Part shown: one piece after another, positions 15,752-54,045 of the stretch
Numbering within the stretch: the first letter of the stretch is position 1
Layout: every line of letters starts with the position of its first letter
Source: an uncultured Dehalococcoidia bacterium
Lineage (GTDB): Bacteria; Chloroflexota; Dehalococcoidia; Bin125
Reading direction: 5' to 3'
DNA: 64,000 nt
Assembly (NCBI GenBank): GCA_964347635.1
Contig: CAYFZI010000002.1
Coordinates: forward strand, 8,851 to 72,850
Program-made: the position numbers and the translations under genes
The notes under the pieces: model-generated
Databases searched by the model: none
The model's input: only the letters and a program-made list of their open reading frames with translations
Told to the model about the DNA's origin: nothing

Positions 15752-16594
15752 TCACTGCTCTGCTGCGGATTCGGCTTGTTCGGCATCGGCGGCGGGGATG
15801 ATCGCGTGCGGCTCGACAATCCGCACGAGCGCGACGCCGAGGATGTACAGCCCCAGCGTCGGCACGGCGACCACCGTTTGCGTGACGGGGTCGATCGAGG
15901 GCGTGATCAGCGCTGCGAGCAGGAATGCGCCGATGATCGCCCAGCGCCACATACCGAGCAGCCGTTTCGATGTGACCAGGCCGAACGCCCCCAGACCCAT
16001 CAGGAAGAGCGGCATTTCGAAGATGATCCCGGTCCAGAAGACGAAGCGGGTCAGCATGTCGACGTAGTTGTTGATCCGCACCTGCGGCTCGGCGATCTTG
16101 TCGCCGAAGTTGAGCAGGAAGTCGAGCGCGGGCGGCCAGCCGATGTAGAAGGCGAAGGCGCCCCCGCAGGCGAAGGCGATCGTGGCGACGAAGACGATTG
16201 GCAGAATCCAGCGCCGCTCGGTGCGCGTCAGCCCGGGGTGGATGAAGGCGTAGGCCTGGTAGACGAGCACCGGCATCGCGCCGGCGACCCCCAGCATCAG
16301 GCTGATCTTGATGTACGCGCCGATGTAGCCGAGCAGCTCGGTGTAGATCGGCCGAAAGTCGGGCAGCGCTGCGCGTCCGGGCTCGAGCAGGTAATCGAGG
16401 ATCGATTCGGCGAACACGAGCGTGACGACCGTGGTCAGCACCACGCTCAGCGTGGCGATCGTGAGCCGCTGGCGGATTTCGCTGAGATGCTCGCCGAGTG
16501 TCAGCTCGCGATCGCCGCTGCTCTCGGGCTCCTCGGCCAGCTCCAGATCGAGCGGCGTTTCCTCGGGCGGCTGGGCGGCCGGCTGCGATGCCAT
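15752..16594 (-). CDS. tatC: Twin-arginine translocase subunit TatC
   Basis: Six-TM protein with TatC motifs (LSEIRQRL..., AYIKISL, PGLT..ER, IFEMPL). Confidence 0.9.
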   Translation of the reverse strand: MASQPAAQPPEETPLDLELAEEPESSGDRELTLGEHLSEIRQRLTIATLSVVLTTVVTLVFAESILDYLLEPGRAALPDFRPIYTELLGYIGAYIKISLMLGVAGAMPVLVYQAYAFIHPGLTRTERRWILPIVFVATIAFACGGAFAFYIGWPPALDFLLNFGDKIAEPQVRINNYVDMLTRFVFWTGIIFEMPLFLMGLGAFGLVTSKRLLGMWRWAIIGAFLLAALITPSIDPVTQTVVAVPTLGLYILGVALVRIVEPHAIIPAADAEQAESAAEQ

Positions 16595-16614
16595 GCGTCA
16601 GTCTGTCCGCGCCG

Positions 16615-17142
16615 CTACGCGCCGCCGCGGCGGCGGTTCAGCGAAATCACGTTCGAGGGCCGCGCCGGCGCTTCGGCGGCGCGCGCGCTGCGCCGCCGCA
16701 CGATCGGGCGCCGCCGCGCTTGGCGCGCCTCCGCCTGCGGCTCGGCTTCGACGGCCGCTGCGATCGGCGTCGGTGACGGCGGTGTCTGATTCGCCGCATT
16801 GGGGGACGCCGGGGCGCCGCTGCGCGCCGCCGACACCGCTTCCTCGGTCGCAATTTCAGCGTCGCGCGCGGCCGCCCGAATGTCCGCCTCGGCATCGGCC
16901 AGATCGCGGCGCAGCTCTTCGTCCGTTTCCTCCAGCTGGTGGCGAACTTCGATGTACTCCTCGCGCATCTCTTCGAAGTCGGTCAAATACTCGTCTCGGA
17001 AGTCGCGCGCATACTCGCGCAGCTCGCGAATCGCGCGCCCAAACTGCCCGGCGAACTCTGGCAGGCGGGCGGGCCCGAAGATCACCGCGGCCAACAGCAG
17101 CACGACCAGAATTTCTGGGATTCCAACGCCGAAGATATTCAT
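16615..17142 (-). CDS. tatA: Sec-independent translocase TatA/TatB-family protein with a long C-terminal tail
   Basis: MNIFGVGIPEILVVLLLAAVIFGPARLPE N-terminal TM plus amphipathic helix. The extended acidic/Pro-rich tail suggests a TatB-like role. Confidence 0.85.
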   Translation of the reverse strand: MNIFGVGIPEILVVLLLAAVIFGPARLPEFAGQFGRAIRELREYARDFRDEYLTDFEEMREEYIEVRHQLEETDEELRRDLADAEADIRAAARDAEIATEEAVSAARSGAPASPNAANQTPPSPTPIAAAVEAEPQAEARQARRRPIVRRRSARAAEAPARPSNVISLNRRRGGA

Positions 17143-17354
17143 GCGCGCCCCACCGCGGCCTCAGGCCGCCTGGCGCTGCACGCGCCCGCTCCAGCGTGCA
17201 TACGCGCCGGCTTCAGCGTATCGGATTTGCGCTCGGCTGCCGCATTCCCGCCGCGGCCGGGCGGGGGAAGGCCTCGCATTCCCCGCCCGCTCTGCTGGCG
17301 GCGGGAGCGGAGCGGTTGGGCCATTGCCTGCGTCGGCGGCGGTTCAGCGCTCCG

Positions 17355-17612
17355 CTAGTTTTCCGGCACGCCCTTCTCGAGCAGAAAATTGACCGCATCG
17401 CGGACGGTCGCGATCTCCTCCGCGTCCTCATCGGAGATCTCCAGGTCGGGCACCTCATCGCGGAATTCTTCTTCGAACGACATAATCAGCTCGACCAGAT
17501 CGAGCGAGTCCGCGCCGAGGTCGTCGATGAATGAGGCGTCCAGCGTGACCTCGTCGGCCTCGACGCTGAGCTGCTCCACGATGATGCCCTGAATCCGTTC
17601 GAACAGTGCCAC
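17355..17612 (-). CDS. acpP: Acyl carrier protein
   Basis: IVEQLSV...[20 protein letters not shown] with the phosphopantetheine-attachment Ser in DSLD. An internal GTG at 17612-17610 is preceded by GGAGG at 8 nt. The same frame stays open upstream (see the NusB-like feature and finding). Confidence 0.8.
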
Positions 17613-17888
17613 TGCAGAAGCCTCCTGCACCGGCCCTTCGAGCCGGGTTCGTCTGATTGTGCCCAACACCCCGCTAACCAAGCGCCGGCTGCCGTCGCTG
17701 CCGTAGCGCTTGGCCAGCTCCACCGCTTCGTGCACGGCGGTCGAGGCGCGTACCGCTTCAGTATTGAAGAGCAGTTCGTACAGCGCAATTCGGAGCACCG
17801 TCAGGTCGACCAGCGCCATCTGCGCGAGCGGGCGTTCCCGCGCCGTCTCGCGGATGATCGCGTCGAGCTCCCCGCAGCGGGCCGCCAC
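17613..17888 (-). CDS. NusB-family (antitermination factor-like) reading frame
   Basis: [22 protein letters not shown]...[25 protein letters not shown] matches the C-terminal helices of NusB. The only in-frame canonical start is GTG 17888. Upstream, NusB-N-terminus-like sequence ([10 protein letters not shown]...) continues in frame to a CTG that overlaps the fabD stop, with no ATG/GTG/TTG. There is no stop before acpP. Confidence 0.35.
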
Positions 17889-18073
17889 ACCGGCGACGAG
17901 CCGCTCCGCATAGAGCCGCTCGGCATCTTCGAGCGGCTCCGCCGCCTGGGCCCGCGCCAGCGCCGCCGCCGCGCTGATCCGCTCAAACTCCGCCTCGAAC
18001 GAGGCGGCAAAGGCGCGCGTGCGCGCGTCTTTGCGGCGCGCCGCCCCCGCTGCCGCGGCGCGGCCGCCGCGGC

Positions 18074-19006
18074 TCAGGCTGCACCCTCCGCGATGCTGGC
18101 TCGATCGTTGAGGTTGATCAGCTTCGGCTTCTCCGGCCGCAGCGTCGTCCGCACCAACCCTGTCAGCACCGTGCCCGGCCCGATCTCTACGAACGTCTCC
18201 ACGCCCAGCGCGCGCATCGCGAGCACGGTGTCGCGCCAGCGCACCGGGCGCCGAATCTGCGCCTTGAGATCGGCGCGCACCGCTTCCGCGCTGGTCAGCG
18301 CCGATGCCTCCACGTTGCCAATCACGGTGATCTTTGGGGCCGCGATCGCCGCTGCGTCGAGCACTGGGCCCATCGCTTCGGCCGCCGGCGCCATCAGCGA
18401 GGTGTGAAAGGCGCCGCCGACGTTGAGCCGCACGACGCGCCGCGCGCCCCGCTGCTCGGCGAGCAGGGCGGCGCGCTCGACCGCTTCCGGTGTTCCGCCC
18501 ACCACGATCTGCCCTGTTGCGTTCAGATTGCAGAGCTCCGCGCCCGTATCCGCGCAGACCTGCTCGACCGCGTCCTCATCCATGCCCAGCACCGCCGCCA
18601 GCGTGCCCGGCCGCGCCTCGCCGGCCGCCTGCATCAGCTCTCCGCGCCGCTGCACGAGCCGCACCGCTTCGGCGACTGTCAGCGAACCGGCCGCCGCGAG
18701 CGCGCTGTACTCGCCTAGGCTGTGCCCCGCCGCACAGACGGGCTCGTCCGCCAGCGCGGCGTGCCCCGCAGCCCGCGCCGCCGCCCAAGCGGCCAGGCTG
18801 GCGACGAGGATCGCCGGCTGCGTGTTGACGGTCCGGCGCAGCTCCTCCTCGGGGCCTTCGAAGATGATCCGCGAGAGCGCCCGCCCGATCGCCGCATCGG
18901 CTGCTTCGAACACCGCCGCCGCCTCTGGGTACGCCTCATAGAGATCGCGCCCCATCCCGACCTGCTGCGCGCCTTGGCCGGGGAACAGCCAGGCGGTTGC
19001 CGCCAC
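18074..19006 (-). CDS. fabD: Malonyl-CoA:ACP transacylase FabD
   Basis: [10 protein letters not shown]...[14 protein letters not shown] active-site motif. GTG 19006 is preceded by GGAGGAG. Length is 309 aa. Confidence 0.9.
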
Positions 19007-19008
19007 CG

Positions 19009-19191
19009 CTACTCCTCCACCGCGATCACCGCATGCCCGCGGTAGGAGCCGCAGGCCCAGCAGATATGATGCGCCTGGTGCGTTGCGTTGCACTCTGGGC
19101 AGATCACCAGCTTGGGGCGGCGCACTTTGTGGTGCTGGCGGCGCAGGCGCTGGCGCGTCTTGGCGTACTTACGTTTGGGAAGCGGCGGCAT
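19009..19191 (-). CDS. rpmF: 50S ribosomal protein L32
   Basis: MPPLPKRKYAKTRQRLRRQHHKV...CPECN...CWACGSYRG, the L32 pattern. It lies downstream of yceD as in the conserved yceD-rpmF arrangement. Confidence 0.9.
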   Translation of the reverse strand: MPPLPKRKYAKTRQRLRRQHHKVRRPKLVICPECNATHQAHHICWACGSYRGHAVIAVEE

Positions 19192-19206
19192 CGCTCAGTT
19201 CTTTCT

Positions 19207-19752
19207 TCAGTGCGGCGGCTGCGGCAGCTGCTCGCGCAGCGCCCGCAGCGCGGCCCAGCGATCGTCGGTCTCTTGTTCGTCGTTGGCGTCGGGCAGCCCG
19301 GCGCCGGGGCAGGACGGCCCGCAGCGCGGGCTGATCGGCCTCGCCATCTCGACATATTGTCGCACGACTTCGGTCAGGTCGATCTGCCCATCGATCACTG
19401 CAAAGCCGTCGCGCTCCGGCGGCGGCTGGAGCGCCCGCCCGGTCAGCGCGTCGGTCGGCGGCCAGAACTCCTCATCGAATTGCAGATCCAATACGAGCGA
19501 GAGCGGTGCGAGGCAGGCGCCGCAGATGTCATCGACGCTCGTTTGCAGCTGTGCGCTGGCGAGCAGCGATTGGTCGGTGCGCAGCAGCCGCAGCGCGCCG
19601 TCAACCGCGCGGCGCCGCCCGGCGTAGCGAAACTCGGCCTGTGAGAGCTCGTAGTCGCGCAGCGCGCCGATCGGCTCCTGCAGCAGGGTCGAGGCGTTGA
19701 TCAGCAGCGAATAGAGCTGCCGCCGTGCGGCGGGGCGCGGTGTGCGGCTCAT
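19207..19752 (-). CDS. yceD: YceD/DUF177 family protein
   Basis: C-terminal CxxC...LPD motif and the conserved position directly upstream of rpmF. Confidence 0.75.
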   Translation of the reverse strand: MSRTPRPAARRQLYSLLINASTLLQEPIGALRDYELSQAEFRYAGRRRAVDGALRLLRTDQSLLASAQLQTSVDDICGACLAPLSLVLDLQFDEEFWPPTDALTGRALQPPPERDGFAVIDGQIDLTEVVRQYVEMARPISPRCGPSCPGAGLPDANDEQETDDRWAALRALREQLPQPPH

Positions 19753-19889
19753 GGCGGGGCCAGCCTATCAGCGCCGTACTCCGCTGTCCGCTGCGTTATT
19801 GCTGCTGCGCTCGTTGGCACTCACCGGCATCGCATAGACTGCGCGCAGAGACTGAGTACAGCGCCAGCGCCCGGACGGAAGCGAGCGCC

Positions 19890-20585
19890 ATGGATCTCGA
19901 GGGGATGCAGGAGCTGCAGAAGATCGATCTTCTGCGCGACGACGCCAAGCGCGTGCTGCAGACCGTTGCCGAGCAGATCGCTGACCCGCCCTTTGTCGAA
20001 GCGTTGGACCGCGAGCTTAAGGCTCAGGTTGATCTCGCCGCCCGGGCGGCGCGCGAGGCGCGCGAGGCGCAGGCGACGGTCGAGGTTGCCCAGCGGCGCA
20101 TCCAGGCGACCGATGAGCGGCTCTACGGCGGCGCGGTGACCGACCACCGCACGCTGGAGGAGCTGCAGCGCGATCTCTACTCGCAGCGCCAGAATCTCGG
20201 CGGCCTGCAGGACGCCGCGCTCAGCGCGGGCCTGCGCTCGGAAGAAGCAGCGGATGCGGAACGCTGGTTGAGCGGGCTGCGTGCGCAATCGCTGGAGCTC
20301 TGGAACCGCCGCCAGGCCGAGCTGGCCGAGCAGCGCAGCAGCGCACAGGTCCGAGTCGACGATCTCTCCGCGCTGGTTGCGCAGCGCCGCATGGGGCTCA
20401 GCGGCGCCGACCTGCGCACCTACGATGAATACCGTCGCCGCCGGCCGCGCGTCGTCGCGGGCGTCGTGGGCGGGGTCTGCGAGGAGTGCCGGCTGACGCT
20501 GCCGACAATGATCATCACCCGGGCGCGCCGCGCCGATCGCCCGATCGAGTGTCCGTCGTGCGGATGTTTGGTGAGAGTGGCCTAA
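19890..20585 (+). CDS. DUF164/COG1579 coiled-coil protein with a C-terminal C4 zinc ribbon
   Basis: Long heptad-rich coiled coil. C-terminal CEECRLTLP...CPSCGCLV is typical of the family that neighbours RNase H in high-GC Gram-positives. The start is placed at ATG 19890; the longer track ORF overlaps divergent yceD. Confidence 0.7.
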   Translation: MDLEGMQELQKIDLLRDDAKRVLQTVAEQIADPPFVEALDRELKAQVDLAARAAREAREAQATVEVAQRRIQATDERLYGGAVTDHRTLEELQRDLYSQRQNLGGLQDAALSAGLRSEEAADAERWLSGLRAQSLELWNRRQAELAEQRSSAQVRVDDLSALVAQRRMGLSGADLRTYDEYRRRRPRVVAGVVGGVCEECRLTLPTMIITRARRADRPIECPSCGCLVRVA

Positions 20586-20588
20586 TTC

Positions 20589-22007
20589 GTGCGTGCGATT
20601 GGCTATCTCAGCCGGTGCGAAGCACAGACCGGCGAGAGAGCGCCCGCACTGGCTGAACAGAACGCGGCATTTCTCGATTTCTGTAACGAGCACGGCTATG
20701 AACCGGCGGCGACATTTCTCGATGCTTCCAGCGAGGCGCAGCGGCCCGGCTTCGCGCAGCTGCTCCAGCACCTCTCTGAGCAGCCGGCGGGCTTCACCGT
20801 GGTCGTAGTGCCCGCCTTTTGCCGGCTCGGAGGCGACGCCAATCAGAGCGCGCGCGCGCTGCTGCAGATGCGCGTGCGCGGGGCGCAGGTGCTCTCGCTG
20901 GCTGAGGGCCCGCTCGATGAATCGGCCATGATCGAGCTTTGGGAGCGCCAGCAGCCGCGCGAGCGGGGCCGCCGGGTGCGCGACGCGATGCGCCGCCGCG
21001 CGGTCCGCGGGCAGGCTCTGGGCCGCCCGCCCTACGGTTACTGCGTCGGCCCCGAGGGCCGCTTTGAGGCGGTCGCCGAGGAGGCCGACGTGGTCAAATA
21101 CATCGTGCGGATGTATCTTGACGAGGGCCTCGGGATCCGCCGCATTGCCCAGCGGCTCAACGCCGAGGGCTACCGCACCCGCCGCAAGGGGAACTGGAGC
21201 ATGGTCACGATCCGTGATCTGCTGCGCAACCGCGTCTACATGGGCACCTACCAGCGCTTCGGCGTCAGCGTGCCCAACAACCATGAGGCGTTGATCACGC
21301 GGACAGAGTTCAACGCAGTGCAGGAGCGGATGGCCGCGCGGCGCACGGCGCCGGGCGCCTCGCAGGGCGGGCGCTTTCTGCTTTCCGGCCTGCTCTGGTG
21401 CGGGGAAAGCGGCAGCCGCATGGTCGGCGTGACGCGCCGCCAGCGCTGGCAGCGTCGCGGCGGCGAGACCTCCAGCGGCGTCTACCGCTATTACCAGAGC
21501 GGGGCGCGCACCAACCAGTCGGTCGGCGGTTACCACACGCGCCGCGCCGATGAGCTCGAACAGGAGGTGTTGGCGCATCTGCGCGGCGAGCACAGCCGCG
21601 AGCCGCTCCCGGCCCTGGCGCTGGCCGGGGACGCCAACGCGGTCGTCGCCGAGGCGACCGCCGCCCTCTCGCGGGCGAAATCGCGGCTGCGCGCGCTCGA
21701 TCGCCGCCTCGGCCAGGCGCTCGACGCCGTCAGCGTCGGCGGCGGCTCGATGCAGGGCTTGCGGGACACAGCGGCGGTGGTCGTTGAGGAGTATGAGCGC
21801 GCCGAAGCGGATGTCGAGCGGCTGCACGGCCGCCTCGCGGCGCACACCTCCGACGCTCAACGCCGGCGCCGCCGCGATCAGCTGCTCGCCCAGGTGCGGG
21901 AGGGCTGGGACGCGCTCAGCTTTGAGGCGCAGCGCGCGCTGCTCGCCGACCTGGTCGAGCGGGTGATCGTCCACGACCACGGCGTCCAGACCATCCTGCG
22001 CGCCTGA
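20589..22007 (+). CDS. Large serine recombinase family protein (resolvase-like N-terminus, Recombinase domain, coiled-coil C-terminus); catalytic motif atypical
   Basis: RPGFAQLL, VVVPAFCRLGGD (DRLxR-like) and the Recombinase domain (PPYGY...VVKYIVRMYLDEGLGIRRIAQRLNAEGYRTRRKGNWSMVTIRDLLRNRVYMG) are present. The N-terminus reads GYLSRCEAQ instead of the canonical Y-x-R-V-S-T-x-E-Q. GTG start is 3 nt after the DUF164 stop. Confidence 0.7.
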   Translation: MRAIGYLSRCEAQTGERAPALAEQNAAFLDFCNEHGYEPAATFLDASSEAQRPGFAQLLQHLSEQPAGFTVVVVPAFCRLGGDANQSARALLQMRVRGAQVLSLAEGPLDESAMIELWERQQPRERGRRVRDAMRRRAVRGQALGRPPYGYCVGPEGRFEAVAEEADVVKYIVRMYLDEGLGIRRIAQRLNAEGYRTRRKGNWSMVTIRDLLRNRVYMGTYQRFGVSVPNNHEALITRTEFNAVQERMAARRTAPGASQGGRFLLSGLLWCGESGSRMVGVTRRQRWQRRGGETSSGVYRYYQSGARTNQSVGGYHTRRADELEQEVLAHLRGEHSREPLPALALAGDANAVVAEATAALSRAKSRLRALDRRLGQALDAVSVGGGSMQGLRDTAAVVVEEYERAEADVERLHGRLAAHTSDAQRRRRRDQLLAQVREGWDALSFEAQRALLADLVERVIVHDHGVQTILRA

Positions 22008-22560: not shown

Positions 22561-22952
22561 GGCGGCCAGGCCGCCGGGCGGCCGCGCGCTGATCGCAAGA
22601 TCGGCTCGAGGAAAGTCCGGGCTCCTCGGGACAGGGCGCTGGGTAACTCCCAGGCAGGGCGACCTGACGGAAAGCGCCACAGAAACATACCGCCGCGTGC
22701 GCTGCGGCGCCGCGCGGTAAGGGTGAAATGGTGCGGTAAGAGCGCACCAGCGGCCGGGCGACCGGCCGGCTGGGCAAGCCCCGCCCGGAGCAAGACCAAA
22801 TAGCGAGATCGCGGTGCAGCCCGCTGCGCCGCAGGCGCGTCCCGCGCCGTCTCCGGGTAGGTCGCACGAAGCGGCGGGCAACCGCCGCTCTAGATGGATG
22901 GCCGCCGCCGCAGCGCGGTTACAGAACCCGGCTTACAGGCGGCCTGGCATTC
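22561..22952 (+). ncRNA. rnpB: RNase P RNA (bacterial type A)
   Basis: Universally conserved blocks are present: GGAAAGTCCGGGCTCC, ACAGGGCAGGGTAACTCC-like, GGAAAGTGCCACAGAAA-like, GTAAGGGTGAAATGGTGCGGTAAGAGCGCACCAG, CAAGACCAAATAG, ACAGAACCCGGCTTAC. P1 pairs gccaggccgcc (22565-75) with ggcggcctggc (22938-48). Confidence 0.85.
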
Positions 22953-40152: not shown

Positions 40153-40809
40153 TCAGCCGGCGCCGTTTGTGATCGTTCGCTCCGCGGGTGGCTTGAGAAA
40201 CTCCGCTTCGCTCAGCGGCGCGCCGCTGAGCGCCGCCTCGACCACACGGCCCTGCTCCAGCACCACCCGCTGCGCGCGGCCCGGGTTGCGCCGTCCGGGC
40301 GTGGGCCCCAGCGCGAAAATCTCGGCCTCAACGCGGCCGGCGCCGATCGTCAGGCGGCCGAGCGTGCCGAGCCGCGTCGAGAGATGATGGGGCAGCGAGG
40401 GGCTGCCGGGGTTGATCAGCAGCACGCCGTCGCGGTACTCGAGCCGCTCCACGTGCGTGTCGCCGCCGATCAGCACGTCCACAGGCTCGCCGCCCAGCGC
40501 GGTGCGCCGAATCTCTGCGATCGGGCGCGACTCGGGGCGCAGCTCGTGCGCCATGCCGATGCGCAGGCCGTCGACATCGACGAACTGCCGCTCGCGCAGC
40601 CGCGCGTCATCGAAGATGTCGTTGTTGCCGCGCGCGGCCAGCACCGGCGCGAACTGCTCGCACCAGTCGAGCACGCCCGCCACCGTCACATCGCCGCCGT
40701 GCAGGATGAGGTCCACGCCGGCCAGCGCCTCGCCGGCCTGAGGGCCCAGCTGATCGAGCGAGTGCAGCAGCTGCGGCAGGTGGGTGTCCGAGATCAGGCC
40801 GATCTGCAT
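40153..40809 (-). CDS. Metallophosphoesterase (YfcE-like phosphodiesterase)
   Basis: GLISDTH, GD, GNND, GDTH and GS calcineurin-like metal-binding motifs. Confidence 0.75.
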   Translation of the reverse strand: MQIGLISDTHLPQLLHSLDQLGPQAGEALAGVDLILHGGDVTVAGVLDWCEQFAPVLAARGNNDIFDDARLRERQFVDVDGLRIGMAHELRPESRPIAEIRRTALGGEPVDVLIGGDTHVERLEYRDGVLLINPGSPSLPHHLSTRLGTLGRLTIGAGRVEAEIFALGPTPGRRNPGRAQRVVLEQGRVVEAALSGAPLSEAEFLKPPAERTITNGAG

Positions 40810-42870: not shown

Positions 42871-43926
42871 ATGGCGTTGAATCCCAACCTTGCTCCCGGC
42901 ATCCCGACGGCGCTGGTCCGCGCGGCCGGCCAGCACGCCGCTGAGCCGGAACTCGCGATCCGCGCCGACAACCTGACCAAGCACTTCGGCGAAATTCACG
43001 CTGTCAACGGCATCCGTCTGCGCGTGCCCGTCGGGCAGGTCTTCGGCTTTCTCGGCCAGAACGGCTCCGGCAAGTCGACCACCGTGCGGATGCTGACGAC
43101 GCTGCTGAAGCCGACAGCCGGGGACGCGCTGGTCGCCGGCCTCGATGTCCGCCGCGAGCCGCGCCAGGTGCGCCAGGCGATCGGCGTCGCGCTGCAGGAA
43201 GCGGGGCTCGACCTGCTCCAGACTGGCCGCGAGCTGCTGCGCCTCTCGGCGCGGCTCTACAACGTGCCCCGCGCCGACATCGAAGCGCGGATCGCCTACC
43301 TGCTCGATGTCGTGGACCTCGCCGGCGACGCCGAGCGCCGCATCGGCGAATACTCTGGCGGGATGCAGCGCCGCCTCGACCTCGCCGCCGCGCTGGTCCA
43401 CAGCCCCCGCCTGATCTTCCTCGACGAACCTACCACCGGCCTGGACCCGGTCAGCCGCCAAAACCTCTGGGAATACATCGAGCGGCTCAACCGCGAGGAC
43501 GGCGTGACCTTCTTCCTGACCACGCAGTACCTCGAAGAGGCCGACCAGCTCTGCGACGAGATCGCGATCCTCGACGCCGGTCTGATCGTCGCTCAGGGCT
43601 CGCCCAAGGCGCTCAAGGACACGGTCTCCGATGATGTGATCTCGTTCGAGGTGAACGGCCGCGGCGAGGGGCGGCGGGCGATCGACGCCGTCGCCGGGCT
43701 GCCGATGGTCGACAATGTCCGCAGCGACGGCGAGATCGGCGTCGCCATCTACACCAAGAGCGGGACCGCTGTCTTTCCAACCGTCGTGCGGGCGTTGGAC
43801 AACGCCGGCCTGGCCTTCGACAACCTGCGGCTCGCGCACGCGACGCTCGACGACGTCTTCTTCCAGGCGACCGGCCACCGTATGGAGCCGCCGAGCACGG
43901 CCGACGGCGCGGAAGGCGGGTCCTGA
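42871..43926 (+). CDS. ABC transporter ATP-binding protein (ABC-2 exporter type)
   Basis: GFLGQNGSGKSTT Walker A, LSGGMQRRLDLAAAL signature, LIFLDEPTTGLD Walker B and a C-terminal extension. The start is ATG 42871; the longer track ORF is not credible. Confidence 0.85.
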   Translation: MALNPNLAPGIPTALVRAAGQHAAEPELAIRADNLTKHFGEIHAVNGIRLRVPVGQVFGFLGQNGSGKSTTVRMLTTLLKPTAGDALVAGLDVRREPRQVRQAIGVALQEAGLDLLQTGRELLRLSARLYNVPRADIEARIAYLLDVVDLAGDAERRIGEYSGGMQRRLDLAAALVHSPRLIFLDEPTTGLDPVSRQNLWEYIERLNREDGVTFFLTTQYLEEADQLCDEIAILDAGLIVAQGSPKALKDTVSDDVISFEVNGRGEGRRAIDAVAGLPMVDNVRSDGEIGVAIYTKSGTAVFPTVVRALDNAGLAFDNLRLAHATLDDVFFQATGHRMEPPSTADGAEGGS

Positions 43927-45456: not shown

Positions 45457-45533
45457 TGGCGCCCCTGGGAGGACTCGAACCTCCAGCCTGCGGATTAGAA
45501 GTCCGCTGCTCTGTCCGGTTGAGCTACAGGGGC
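45457..45533 (-). tRNA. tRNA-Arg (anticodon TCT), CCA encoded
   Basis: The reverse complement is GCCCCTGTAGCTCAACCGGACAGAGCAGCGGACTTCTAATCCGCAGGCTGGAGGTTCGAGTCCTCCCAGGGGCGCCA. It forms a cloverleaf with 7-bp acceptor stem, anticodon loop CTTCTAA and T-loop GGTTCGAGTCC. Confidence 0.85.
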
Positions 45534-53865: not shown

Positions 53866-54045
53866 CGCAGAATCAGAGTGGGGCGCACGACGGGGAACCC
53901 GGTGCGAATCCGGGGCTGTCGCGCAACGGTGATCCGCAGCTCGCTGCGGTCAGCCCGAATACCGTCGGGGCGCCCACGCCAGCACACCGACTTCGCGTCA
54001 GGGTCGGGGCGTCCCCAAACGGCCCATCGAGGCCGTTTTCGCTGC
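53866..54045 (+). promoter_or_regulatory. Cobalamin (AdoCbl) riboswitch with a terminator-like expression platform
   Basis: AGAATCAGAGTGGG...GGGAACCCGGTGCGAATCCGGGGCTGTCGCGCAACGGTGA matches the conserved cobalamin-riboswitch core (GGGAA..GGTG.AA.TCC...CTG.C.CGCAAC.GT). A B12-box-like GTCAGGGTCGGGG and a hairpin aacggcc-catcga-ggccgtttt (54019-54045) lie upstream of a btuF-like gene. Confidence 0.7.

Follow-up and report, generated by a model that had tools for sequence, protein, structure and literature searches.

In a 64-kb stretch of a soil Chloroflexota genome (the window; GC content 69%), the genes nusB and acpP, encoding NusB and acyl carrier protein (ACP), respectively, are joined head to tail in one open reading frame (ORF) that directly follows fabD. 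As a whole, the locus is best explained, and probably correctly so, as the organism's housekeeping nusB-acpP gene pair merged into a single reading frame, the translation of which would begin at a CUG codon (18077) overlapping the fabD stop. All features of the locus lie on the minus strand (Table 1), in the gene order yceD-rpmF-fabD-nusB/acpP-tatA-like-tatC. The frame that ends at the acpP TAG contains no stop codon between the NusB and ACP parts (18077-17355) and remains open upstream through 18077 and for about 165 codons beyond, with GTG 17888 as its first ATG, GTG or TTG after the preceding stop. A preliminary description of this DNA had reported the open ACP frame with NusB character upstream, GTG 17888 as its only canonical start and a CTG over the fabD TGA, and all of its coordinates and strings were found to be correct. 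The 64-kb window holds no second nusB or acpP, and the 80 best genome matches included no more than one locus per genome.

Both parts of the 240-residue translation (18077-17358) are ordinary members of their respective families. The upstream part matches PF01029 (NusB) at residues 17-142 with an E-value of 1.2e-23, covering profile positions 2-132 of 133 and thus bearing out, near full length, the NusB character first proposed for it. It also scores 93.3 bits with TIGR01951 (nusB), exceeding the equivalog cut-off of 88.35, and its residues 12-139 align with residues 6-130 of E. coli NusB. Likewise, residues 160-232 match PF00550 (PP-binding), and TIGR00517 (acyl_carrier; cut-off 70.45) scores 87.3 bits with the 240-residue protein and 91.4 bits with the ACP part, which reaches 105.5 bits with NF002148, is 53-59% identical to solved ACPs and finds ACPs in the PDB with E-values down to 4e-20. 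The AlphaFold (AF2) model of the 240-residue protein, with a predicted local distance difference test score (pLDDT) of 86, consists of two confident domains and a less confident linker. Over NusB residues 11-146 the pLDDT is about 90, and helix 1 starts at residue 4. The predicted template modelling score (pTM) of 0.61 corresponds to no confident interface between the two domains. In Foldseek comparisons the NusB part gave template modelling scores (TM-scores) of 0.80-0.86 to 1eyv, 3imq and 1tzt/1tzv, with the all-alpha NusB fold including its N-terminal helices, and the ACP part gave a TM-score of about 0.9 and a root-mean-square deviation of about 1 Å to four-helix ACP structures.

The protein thus resembles known NusB proteins (TIGR01951/PF01029; structures 3d3b, 1eyv and 1tzt; E. 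coli, M. tuberculosis and T. maritima) in its complete all-helical fold and Arg-rich N-terminus, but differs in bearing a C-terminal ACP domain, in lacking a stop codon of its own, in its putative CTG start instead of ATG, GTG or TTG, and in its place within an rpmF-fabD-acpP cluster. NusB is a transcription antitermination factor that binds NusE/S10 and BoxA RNA and serves in rRNA antitermination, activities that would be putative for the fused protein. The PDB fold search returned no solved chain that spans both a NusB and an ACP domain. Conversely, the ACP part is like housekeeping AcpP of type II fatty-acid synthesis (TIGR00517) in its 85 residues, the serine of the DSL motif, its own Shine-Dalgarno (SD) sequence and GTG, and the yceD-rpmF-fabD cluster, and unlike it in that the acpP start lies inside an upstream open frame, so that a NusB-tagged ACP is also encoded.

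The fused arrangement recurs in the relatives of the window, which were compared as numbered loci (L) and numbered protein clusters (P). The nearest named genomes are GC-rich 'Dehalococcoidia bacterium' metagenome-assembled genomes (MAGs) of the Chloroflexota, and the closest locus, L001, is about 99% identical to the window yet a distinct sequence. A protein search returned fused NusB and ACP ORFs at 79-87% identity (P0002-P0017), at about 60% (P0018-22) and at 40-47% (P0028, 29, 33, 34, 37, 45 and 58); an exhaustive search of 50%-identity representatives added about 10 further fused clusters, and fused forms are present in at least 15 divergent protein clusters. At the DNA level the fused state is found in the window and in L001-L006, L086-L090 and L094-L099, loci that have the synteny yceD-rpmF-fabD-(fabG)-nusB/acpP-tatA-tatC in common, and the genes are separate in L091, L093 and L007-L082. 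Twelve close loci, derived from at least four samples with several assemblers, have the same in-frame junction in their DNA. Some close fused loci lie on circular contigs about 3 Mb long with 15-264x coverage, and some fused-locus contigs bear hifiasm-style names (ptg...c) that suggest HiFi assembly. Between lineages, the ratio of nonsynonymous to synonymous differences (pN/pS) is 0.2-0.6 for NusB and about 0.1 for ACP.

These data bear on whether the CTG-started fused gene could be a nusB copy in decay, or an artefact of sequencing or assembly; decay and assembly error had both been considered in the preliminary description. The missing canonical start, the missing stop and the partly long-read nature of the MAG assemblies would fit such an origin. 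However, both domains are under purifying selection, the TIGR01951 equivalog cut-off is passed, and at least 12 loci, drawn from several samples and assemblers, have the same structure, with all length differences being multiples of three. Because the junction recurs in independent assemblies, covering at least six diverged lineages, and the pN/pS values indicate constraint on both domains, a frameshifted or decaying paralogue and an assembly error are both rejected, and we give this explanation next to no credence. By these comparisons the NusB-ACP fusion is real, recurrent and evolutionarily unstable, and the proposal of a fusion protein of about 240 residues is borne out by the same in-frame fusion in relatives. 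A scan of JGI metagenomes with the 240-residue protein yielded two distant, unfused loci only and no new lineage. A literature search on NusB-ACP fusions returned nothing relevant; it is this architecture, and a conserved CUG start within a stop-start overlap, that vary from the ordinary family members.

The position of the nusB start was addressed by comparison of the fabD stop region. Every close lineage carries NTGAGC at this stop, with the NTG in the NusB frame. The codon is CTG in six lineages (window/L001, L002/3, L004/5/6/90, L086, L087-89 and L094), TTG in L091/92 and L095/96, and GTG in L093. In the TTG and GTG lineages gene callers start nusB at this codon, with a 4-nt overlap, giving the N-termini MSAASRR..., MSGQNRR... 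and MSRRTAGR.... The nusB genes of L095/96 (TTG) and L002 (CTG) are about 97% identical, and the 60-nt context of the start is the same but for one base. From the NTG to the conserved F..LFEAEF motif there are 22, 11, 21, 14 and 15 codons in five close CTG lineages, the frame always being preserved, and between close pairs the substitutions from the NTG to the fold are 11 synonymous to 4 nonsynonymous (binomial P=5e-4, neutral expectation 0.29). In addition, GGAG or GGGAG stands 7-8 nt before the NTG in L002, L086 and L087 despite differing fabD amino acids. Since the CTG is orthologous to canonical TTG and GTG starts and the sequence downstream of it evolves as coding, nusB is likely to initiate at CUG 18077, in agreement with the non-canonical, coupled initiation suggested earlier. 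Such initiation could proceed either by re-initiation of ribosomes terminating fabD or by SD-guided de novo initiation.

The gene callers' own choice, GTG 17888, would give a 177-residue fusion to ACP in which NusB helices 1-3 are missing. No other canonical start is in frame, and the database proteins P0001 and P0014-16 are called from the position of this GTG. Still, a start here would cost the protein the part that corresponds to E. coli NusB residues 6 to about 57, the codon has no preceding SD sequence (ctcgtcgccggtGTG), 6 of 10 loci have GTC or GTT at the aligned position, and the 46 fold codons upstream of it, i.e. the N-terminal half of NusB, show a pN/pS of 0.3-0.6 between CTG lineages. 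Initiation at this GTG is consequently considered very improbable. The callers' choice in the L004 lineage is a downstream in-frame TTG or GTG; its close relative L090 has CTG (Leu) and GTA (Val) instead, synonymous replacements that identify them as sense codons.

Other start sites were likewise rejected. Use of the ATC of Ile33 as a near-cognate start would remove a constrained part of helix 1, and L002 has ACC in its place. As for a start concealed by a frameshift, none of the frames contains an ATG, GTG or TTG from the fabD stop to the NusB fold, and the sole nearby GTG (18084) has zero spacing to the GGAGG and is absent from L002. Overlaps of 4 nt of the ATGA or GTGA type are common in the window, and the cTGA at 18077-18074 is its sole CTGA junction without a nearby canonical start. 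Two further CTGA overlaps between coding-looking ORFs occur at 40153 (-), with a canonical start 14 codons downstream, and at 43926 (+), as CTGATG (TGATG type). The former could be another CTG-start candidate. With canonical starts 14 codons and 1 codon away, respectively, these two junctions do not support CTG starts as a general habit of the genome, and that idea was rejected.

The junction has also been weighed as a programmed -1 ribosomal frameshift at the end of fabD, which would produce a FabD-NusB-ACP polyprotein. The NusB frame is indeed -1 relative to fabD, the two frames overlap without a canonical start, and no stop interrupts the NusB frame until far upstream. However, the site has no X XXY YYZ slippery heptamer, the fabD codons before the stop vary by lineage (GCA GCC, TCG ACC, TCG GCC, CCC GCC and TCC GCC), and no significant downstream structure is predicted (z -1.3). 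Moreover, sister lineages show ordinary TTGA or GTGA start-stop overlaps at the same base, making a frameshift unnecessary, and we hold this mechanism to be highly unlikely.

Initiation at CUG 18077 can be set beside two known phenomena. Translational coupling by termination-reinitiation is an established process at 4-nt overlaps (Huber et al. 2019, PMC6728339), and the NTGA geometry and the SD sequence inside the upstream gene are alike in the ATGA-type overlaps and here; the restart codon in the present case is the near-cognate CUG, and its dependence on fabD translation is putative. A review of translational coupling does not discuss CUG restarts. CTG starts are allowed in genetic code table 11, and the AUU start of infC is a near-cognate start codon in bacteria. 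As in such genes, a single near-cognate codon stands where orthologues have a canonical start; unlike in them, it is kept here across several genus-level lineages in a housekeeping gene, alternating with TTG between close strains. Start codons have been described as generally under selection (PMC5622118).

Several observations weigh against this picture. CUG is a poor initiator in E. coli, with 1-2% of the initiation of AUG (10.1101/063800), and an essential-type factor made from CUG alone would be unusual. The L004 lineage has a weak SD sequence (GGCGG) ahead of the CTG and L094 has none; in L094 (1925-2003) an in-frame CTGAGT overlaps the fabD TGA and yet an ATG lies 25 codons downstream. 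RNA folding of 101 nt around each start gave z-scores of -1.33 and -0.18, i.e. no more stable than shuffled sequences, and hence no structural support for obligatory coupling. Finally, fusion has been lost from L091 and L093 and thus shows no sign of having a function of its own.

The start of acpP inside the fused frame, already recognized as an internal GGAGG-GTG at 17612, is retained throughout. The (A/C)GGAGG and the GTG are invariant in 15 loci, the intervening codons vary, and M or V is kept at the ACP N-terminus in most divergent fused proteins. From an invariant SD sequence and GTG amid varying codons we infer that free ACP is still translated, probably from its own start alongside the 240-residue NusB-ACP, the fusion adding a NusB-tagged species. 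In the proposed mechanism, ribosomes ending fabD at UGA 18076-18074, or 30S subunits bound at GGAGG 18089-18085, would initiate with fMet at CUG 18077 and produce the 240-residue NusB-ACP of about 26 kDa. Separate ribosomes would initiate at AGGAGG-8nt-GUG 17612 to give the free 85-residue ACP for fatty-acid synthesis. As CUG is a weak start, FabD and free ACP should each far outnumber NusB-ACP. A scan of 16500-20000 returned no promoter-like sites and, on the minus strand, a single terminator-like hairpin inside the acpP coding sequence, and the Rfam scan of the window gave no match in or near the nusB-acpP locus.

Table 1. Coordinates of the nusB-acpP locus within the window.
Feature	Position	Strand	Remarks
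fabD (malonyl-CoA:ACP transacylase)	18074-19006	-	GTG start 19006, TGA stop 18076-18074; Pfam Acyl_transf_1 E 2.9e-43; L001 orthologue called as 310 aa
Shine-Dalgarno-like GGAGG within the fabD 3' end	18085-18089	-	7 nt upstream of CTG 18077
Proposed nusB start codon CTG	18075-18077	-	Overlaps the fabD stop (cTGA, 18077-18074)
nusB-acpP single ORF	17355-18077	-	240 codons and TAG stop (17357-17355)
Complete NusB fold, residues 12-146	17640-18044	-	E. coli NusB alignment, AF2 model, Foldseek
GTG used as start by gene callers; proposed internal Val64 codon	17886-17888	-	Aligned codon GTC/GTT elsewhere
NusB-ACP linker, residues 147-155	17613-17639	-	Short; contains the acpP ribosome-binding site; pLDDT about 72
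acpP Shine-Dalgarno AGGAGG	17621-17626	-	8 nt before GTG 17612
acpP own GTG start, in-frame Val156 codon of the fusion	17610-17612	-	Invariant in 15 loci; called acpP start in unfused L091 and L093
ACP domain / acpP, 85 codons	17358-17612	-	TIGR00517, NF002148 and PDB ACP matches
Phosphopantetheine-attachment Ser191 (DSL motif, DLGADSLD)	17507-17505	-	Sequence

Among 80 species-representative loci, a separate acpP lies directly after nusB in Dehalococcoidia, Thermomicrobiales, Dictyobacter and Chloroflexaceae, with a gap between the two genes of -14 to +271 nt, mostly 9-60 nt. This adjacency across Chloroflexota classes marks nusB-acpP as an ancestral, tight gene pair of the phylum. In a more distant fused clade (L097-L099, 43% identity, 62% GC) fabG lies between fabD and nusB (L097-L099 1740-2500), which points to an ancestral order fabD-fabG-nusB-acpP from which fabG was lost at this position in the clade of the window. 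Thus, of the earlier remark that nusB occupies the place where fabG usually sits, the absence of fabG stands, but fabG was not replaced by nusB as such.

Inspection of the same locus in related genomes, many of them fused, also shows how the two states may interconvert. In the sister lineages L091/92 and L093 the two genes are separate: nusB uses a different frame and stops at a TGA 14 nt inside acpP, and the acpP of L091 and L093 is called from the same GTG that forms codon 156 of the window frame. Relative to fused genomes, the distance from the SD sequence to this GTG differs by -2 nt in L091 and by +1 nt in L093. L091 is the closest relative of the fused L086 (85% nusB nucleotide identity), from which it follows that the fused or unfused state flipped within the clade. 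An indel of 1-2 nt, in a pair of genes with the nusB stop 14 nt within acpP, is the source of the fusion, which has reverted in some lineages (L091 and L093). Given such reversion, the fusion is probably tolerated rather than strongly selected.

An adaptive origin would hold instead that NusB-ACP couples rRNA antitermination or ribosome biogenesis to acyl-ACP or lipid status, the weak CUG being selected for low dose. In its favour, fused ORFs occur in 17 of 19 close clusters as well as in the divergent clusters mentioned above, the nusB-acpP adjacency is conserved across Chloroflexota classes, the linker is 13 residues in all five fused lineages (5/5), and the CTG is kept even though a G there would leave the FabD sequence unchanged. 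Against this, the fusion reverted at least twice through tiny indels, the internal acpP start is always retained, the AF2 model offers no confident interface between the domains, and CTG and TTG alternate between near-identical strains. We therefore regard an adaptive fusion as unlikely. The stronger proposition, that in this Chloroflexota clade all NusB is a NusB-ACP chimera made from a conserved CUG, that its phosphopantetheinylated or acylated ACP moiety lets the rRNA antitermination machinery sense the status of fatty-acid synthesis, and that the weak, fabD-coupled CUG was selected for a low NusB:FabD:ACP ratio, is at present a speculative one with little probability attached to it.

The surroundings of the locus show further variation. 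Three contigs from one sample (L087, L088 and L089) carry the same fused gene, and in L087 minus-strand OB_ChsH2_C and thiolase genes stand where L088/L089 have tatA-tatC, an exchange that places a rearrangement breakpoint directly after acpP in L087. In the window, the TatA/B-like protein of 175 residues (16615-17142, -) has a normal N-terminal TatA helix (MNIFGVGIPEILVVLLL...) followed by a long, acidic, Ala/Arg-rich tail. Its orthologues are mostly without a precomputed Pfam match, with L093 (PF02416) as an exception, and tatC (15752-16594) is the next gene. On the other side, between yceD and a full-length bacterial class A RNase P RNA (22566-22951, +; 278.7 bits), lie a gene for a Zn_ribbon_9 protein (19725-20585, +) and one for a large serine recombinase (20589-22007, +; Resolvase/Recombinase/Zn_ribbon_recom in the L001 orthologue). 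L001 and L004 have this pair as well, L090 and L093 share the Zn_ribbon_9 gene, and an ABC-transporter gene replaces the pair in L002/L003. The flank from yceD to RNase P thus varies and may be what remains of a mobile element. The genes upstream of the RNase P RNA are overlapped by a long antisense ORF (19821-21980, -) that looks spurious. Elsewhere in the window, a partial match to the cobalamin riboswitch at 53893-53988 (+) covers model positions 46-168 of 189 and, at 35.5 bits, exceeds the gathering score (31.5), and tRNA-Arg(TCT) at 45457-45533 (-) is the only tRNA.

Where gene callers disregard CTG, NusB is annotated in several complete Chloroflexota genomes as a truncated, 177-residue protein that looks non-functional, or is started at arbitrary internal Val or Leu codons; the gene model proposed here is the 240-residue, CTG-started ORF. 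The locus would be a rare case of a near-cognate CUG start kept in a housekeeping gene across genus-level divergence while alternating with TTG between near-identical strains, and this alternation suits a test of whether a stop-start overlap relaxes the choice of start codon. If these bacteria have no second nusB, they would be without free NusB, which, if true, would bear on the tolerance of the antitermination complex for C-terminal cargo and on a link between transcription and lipid synthesis.

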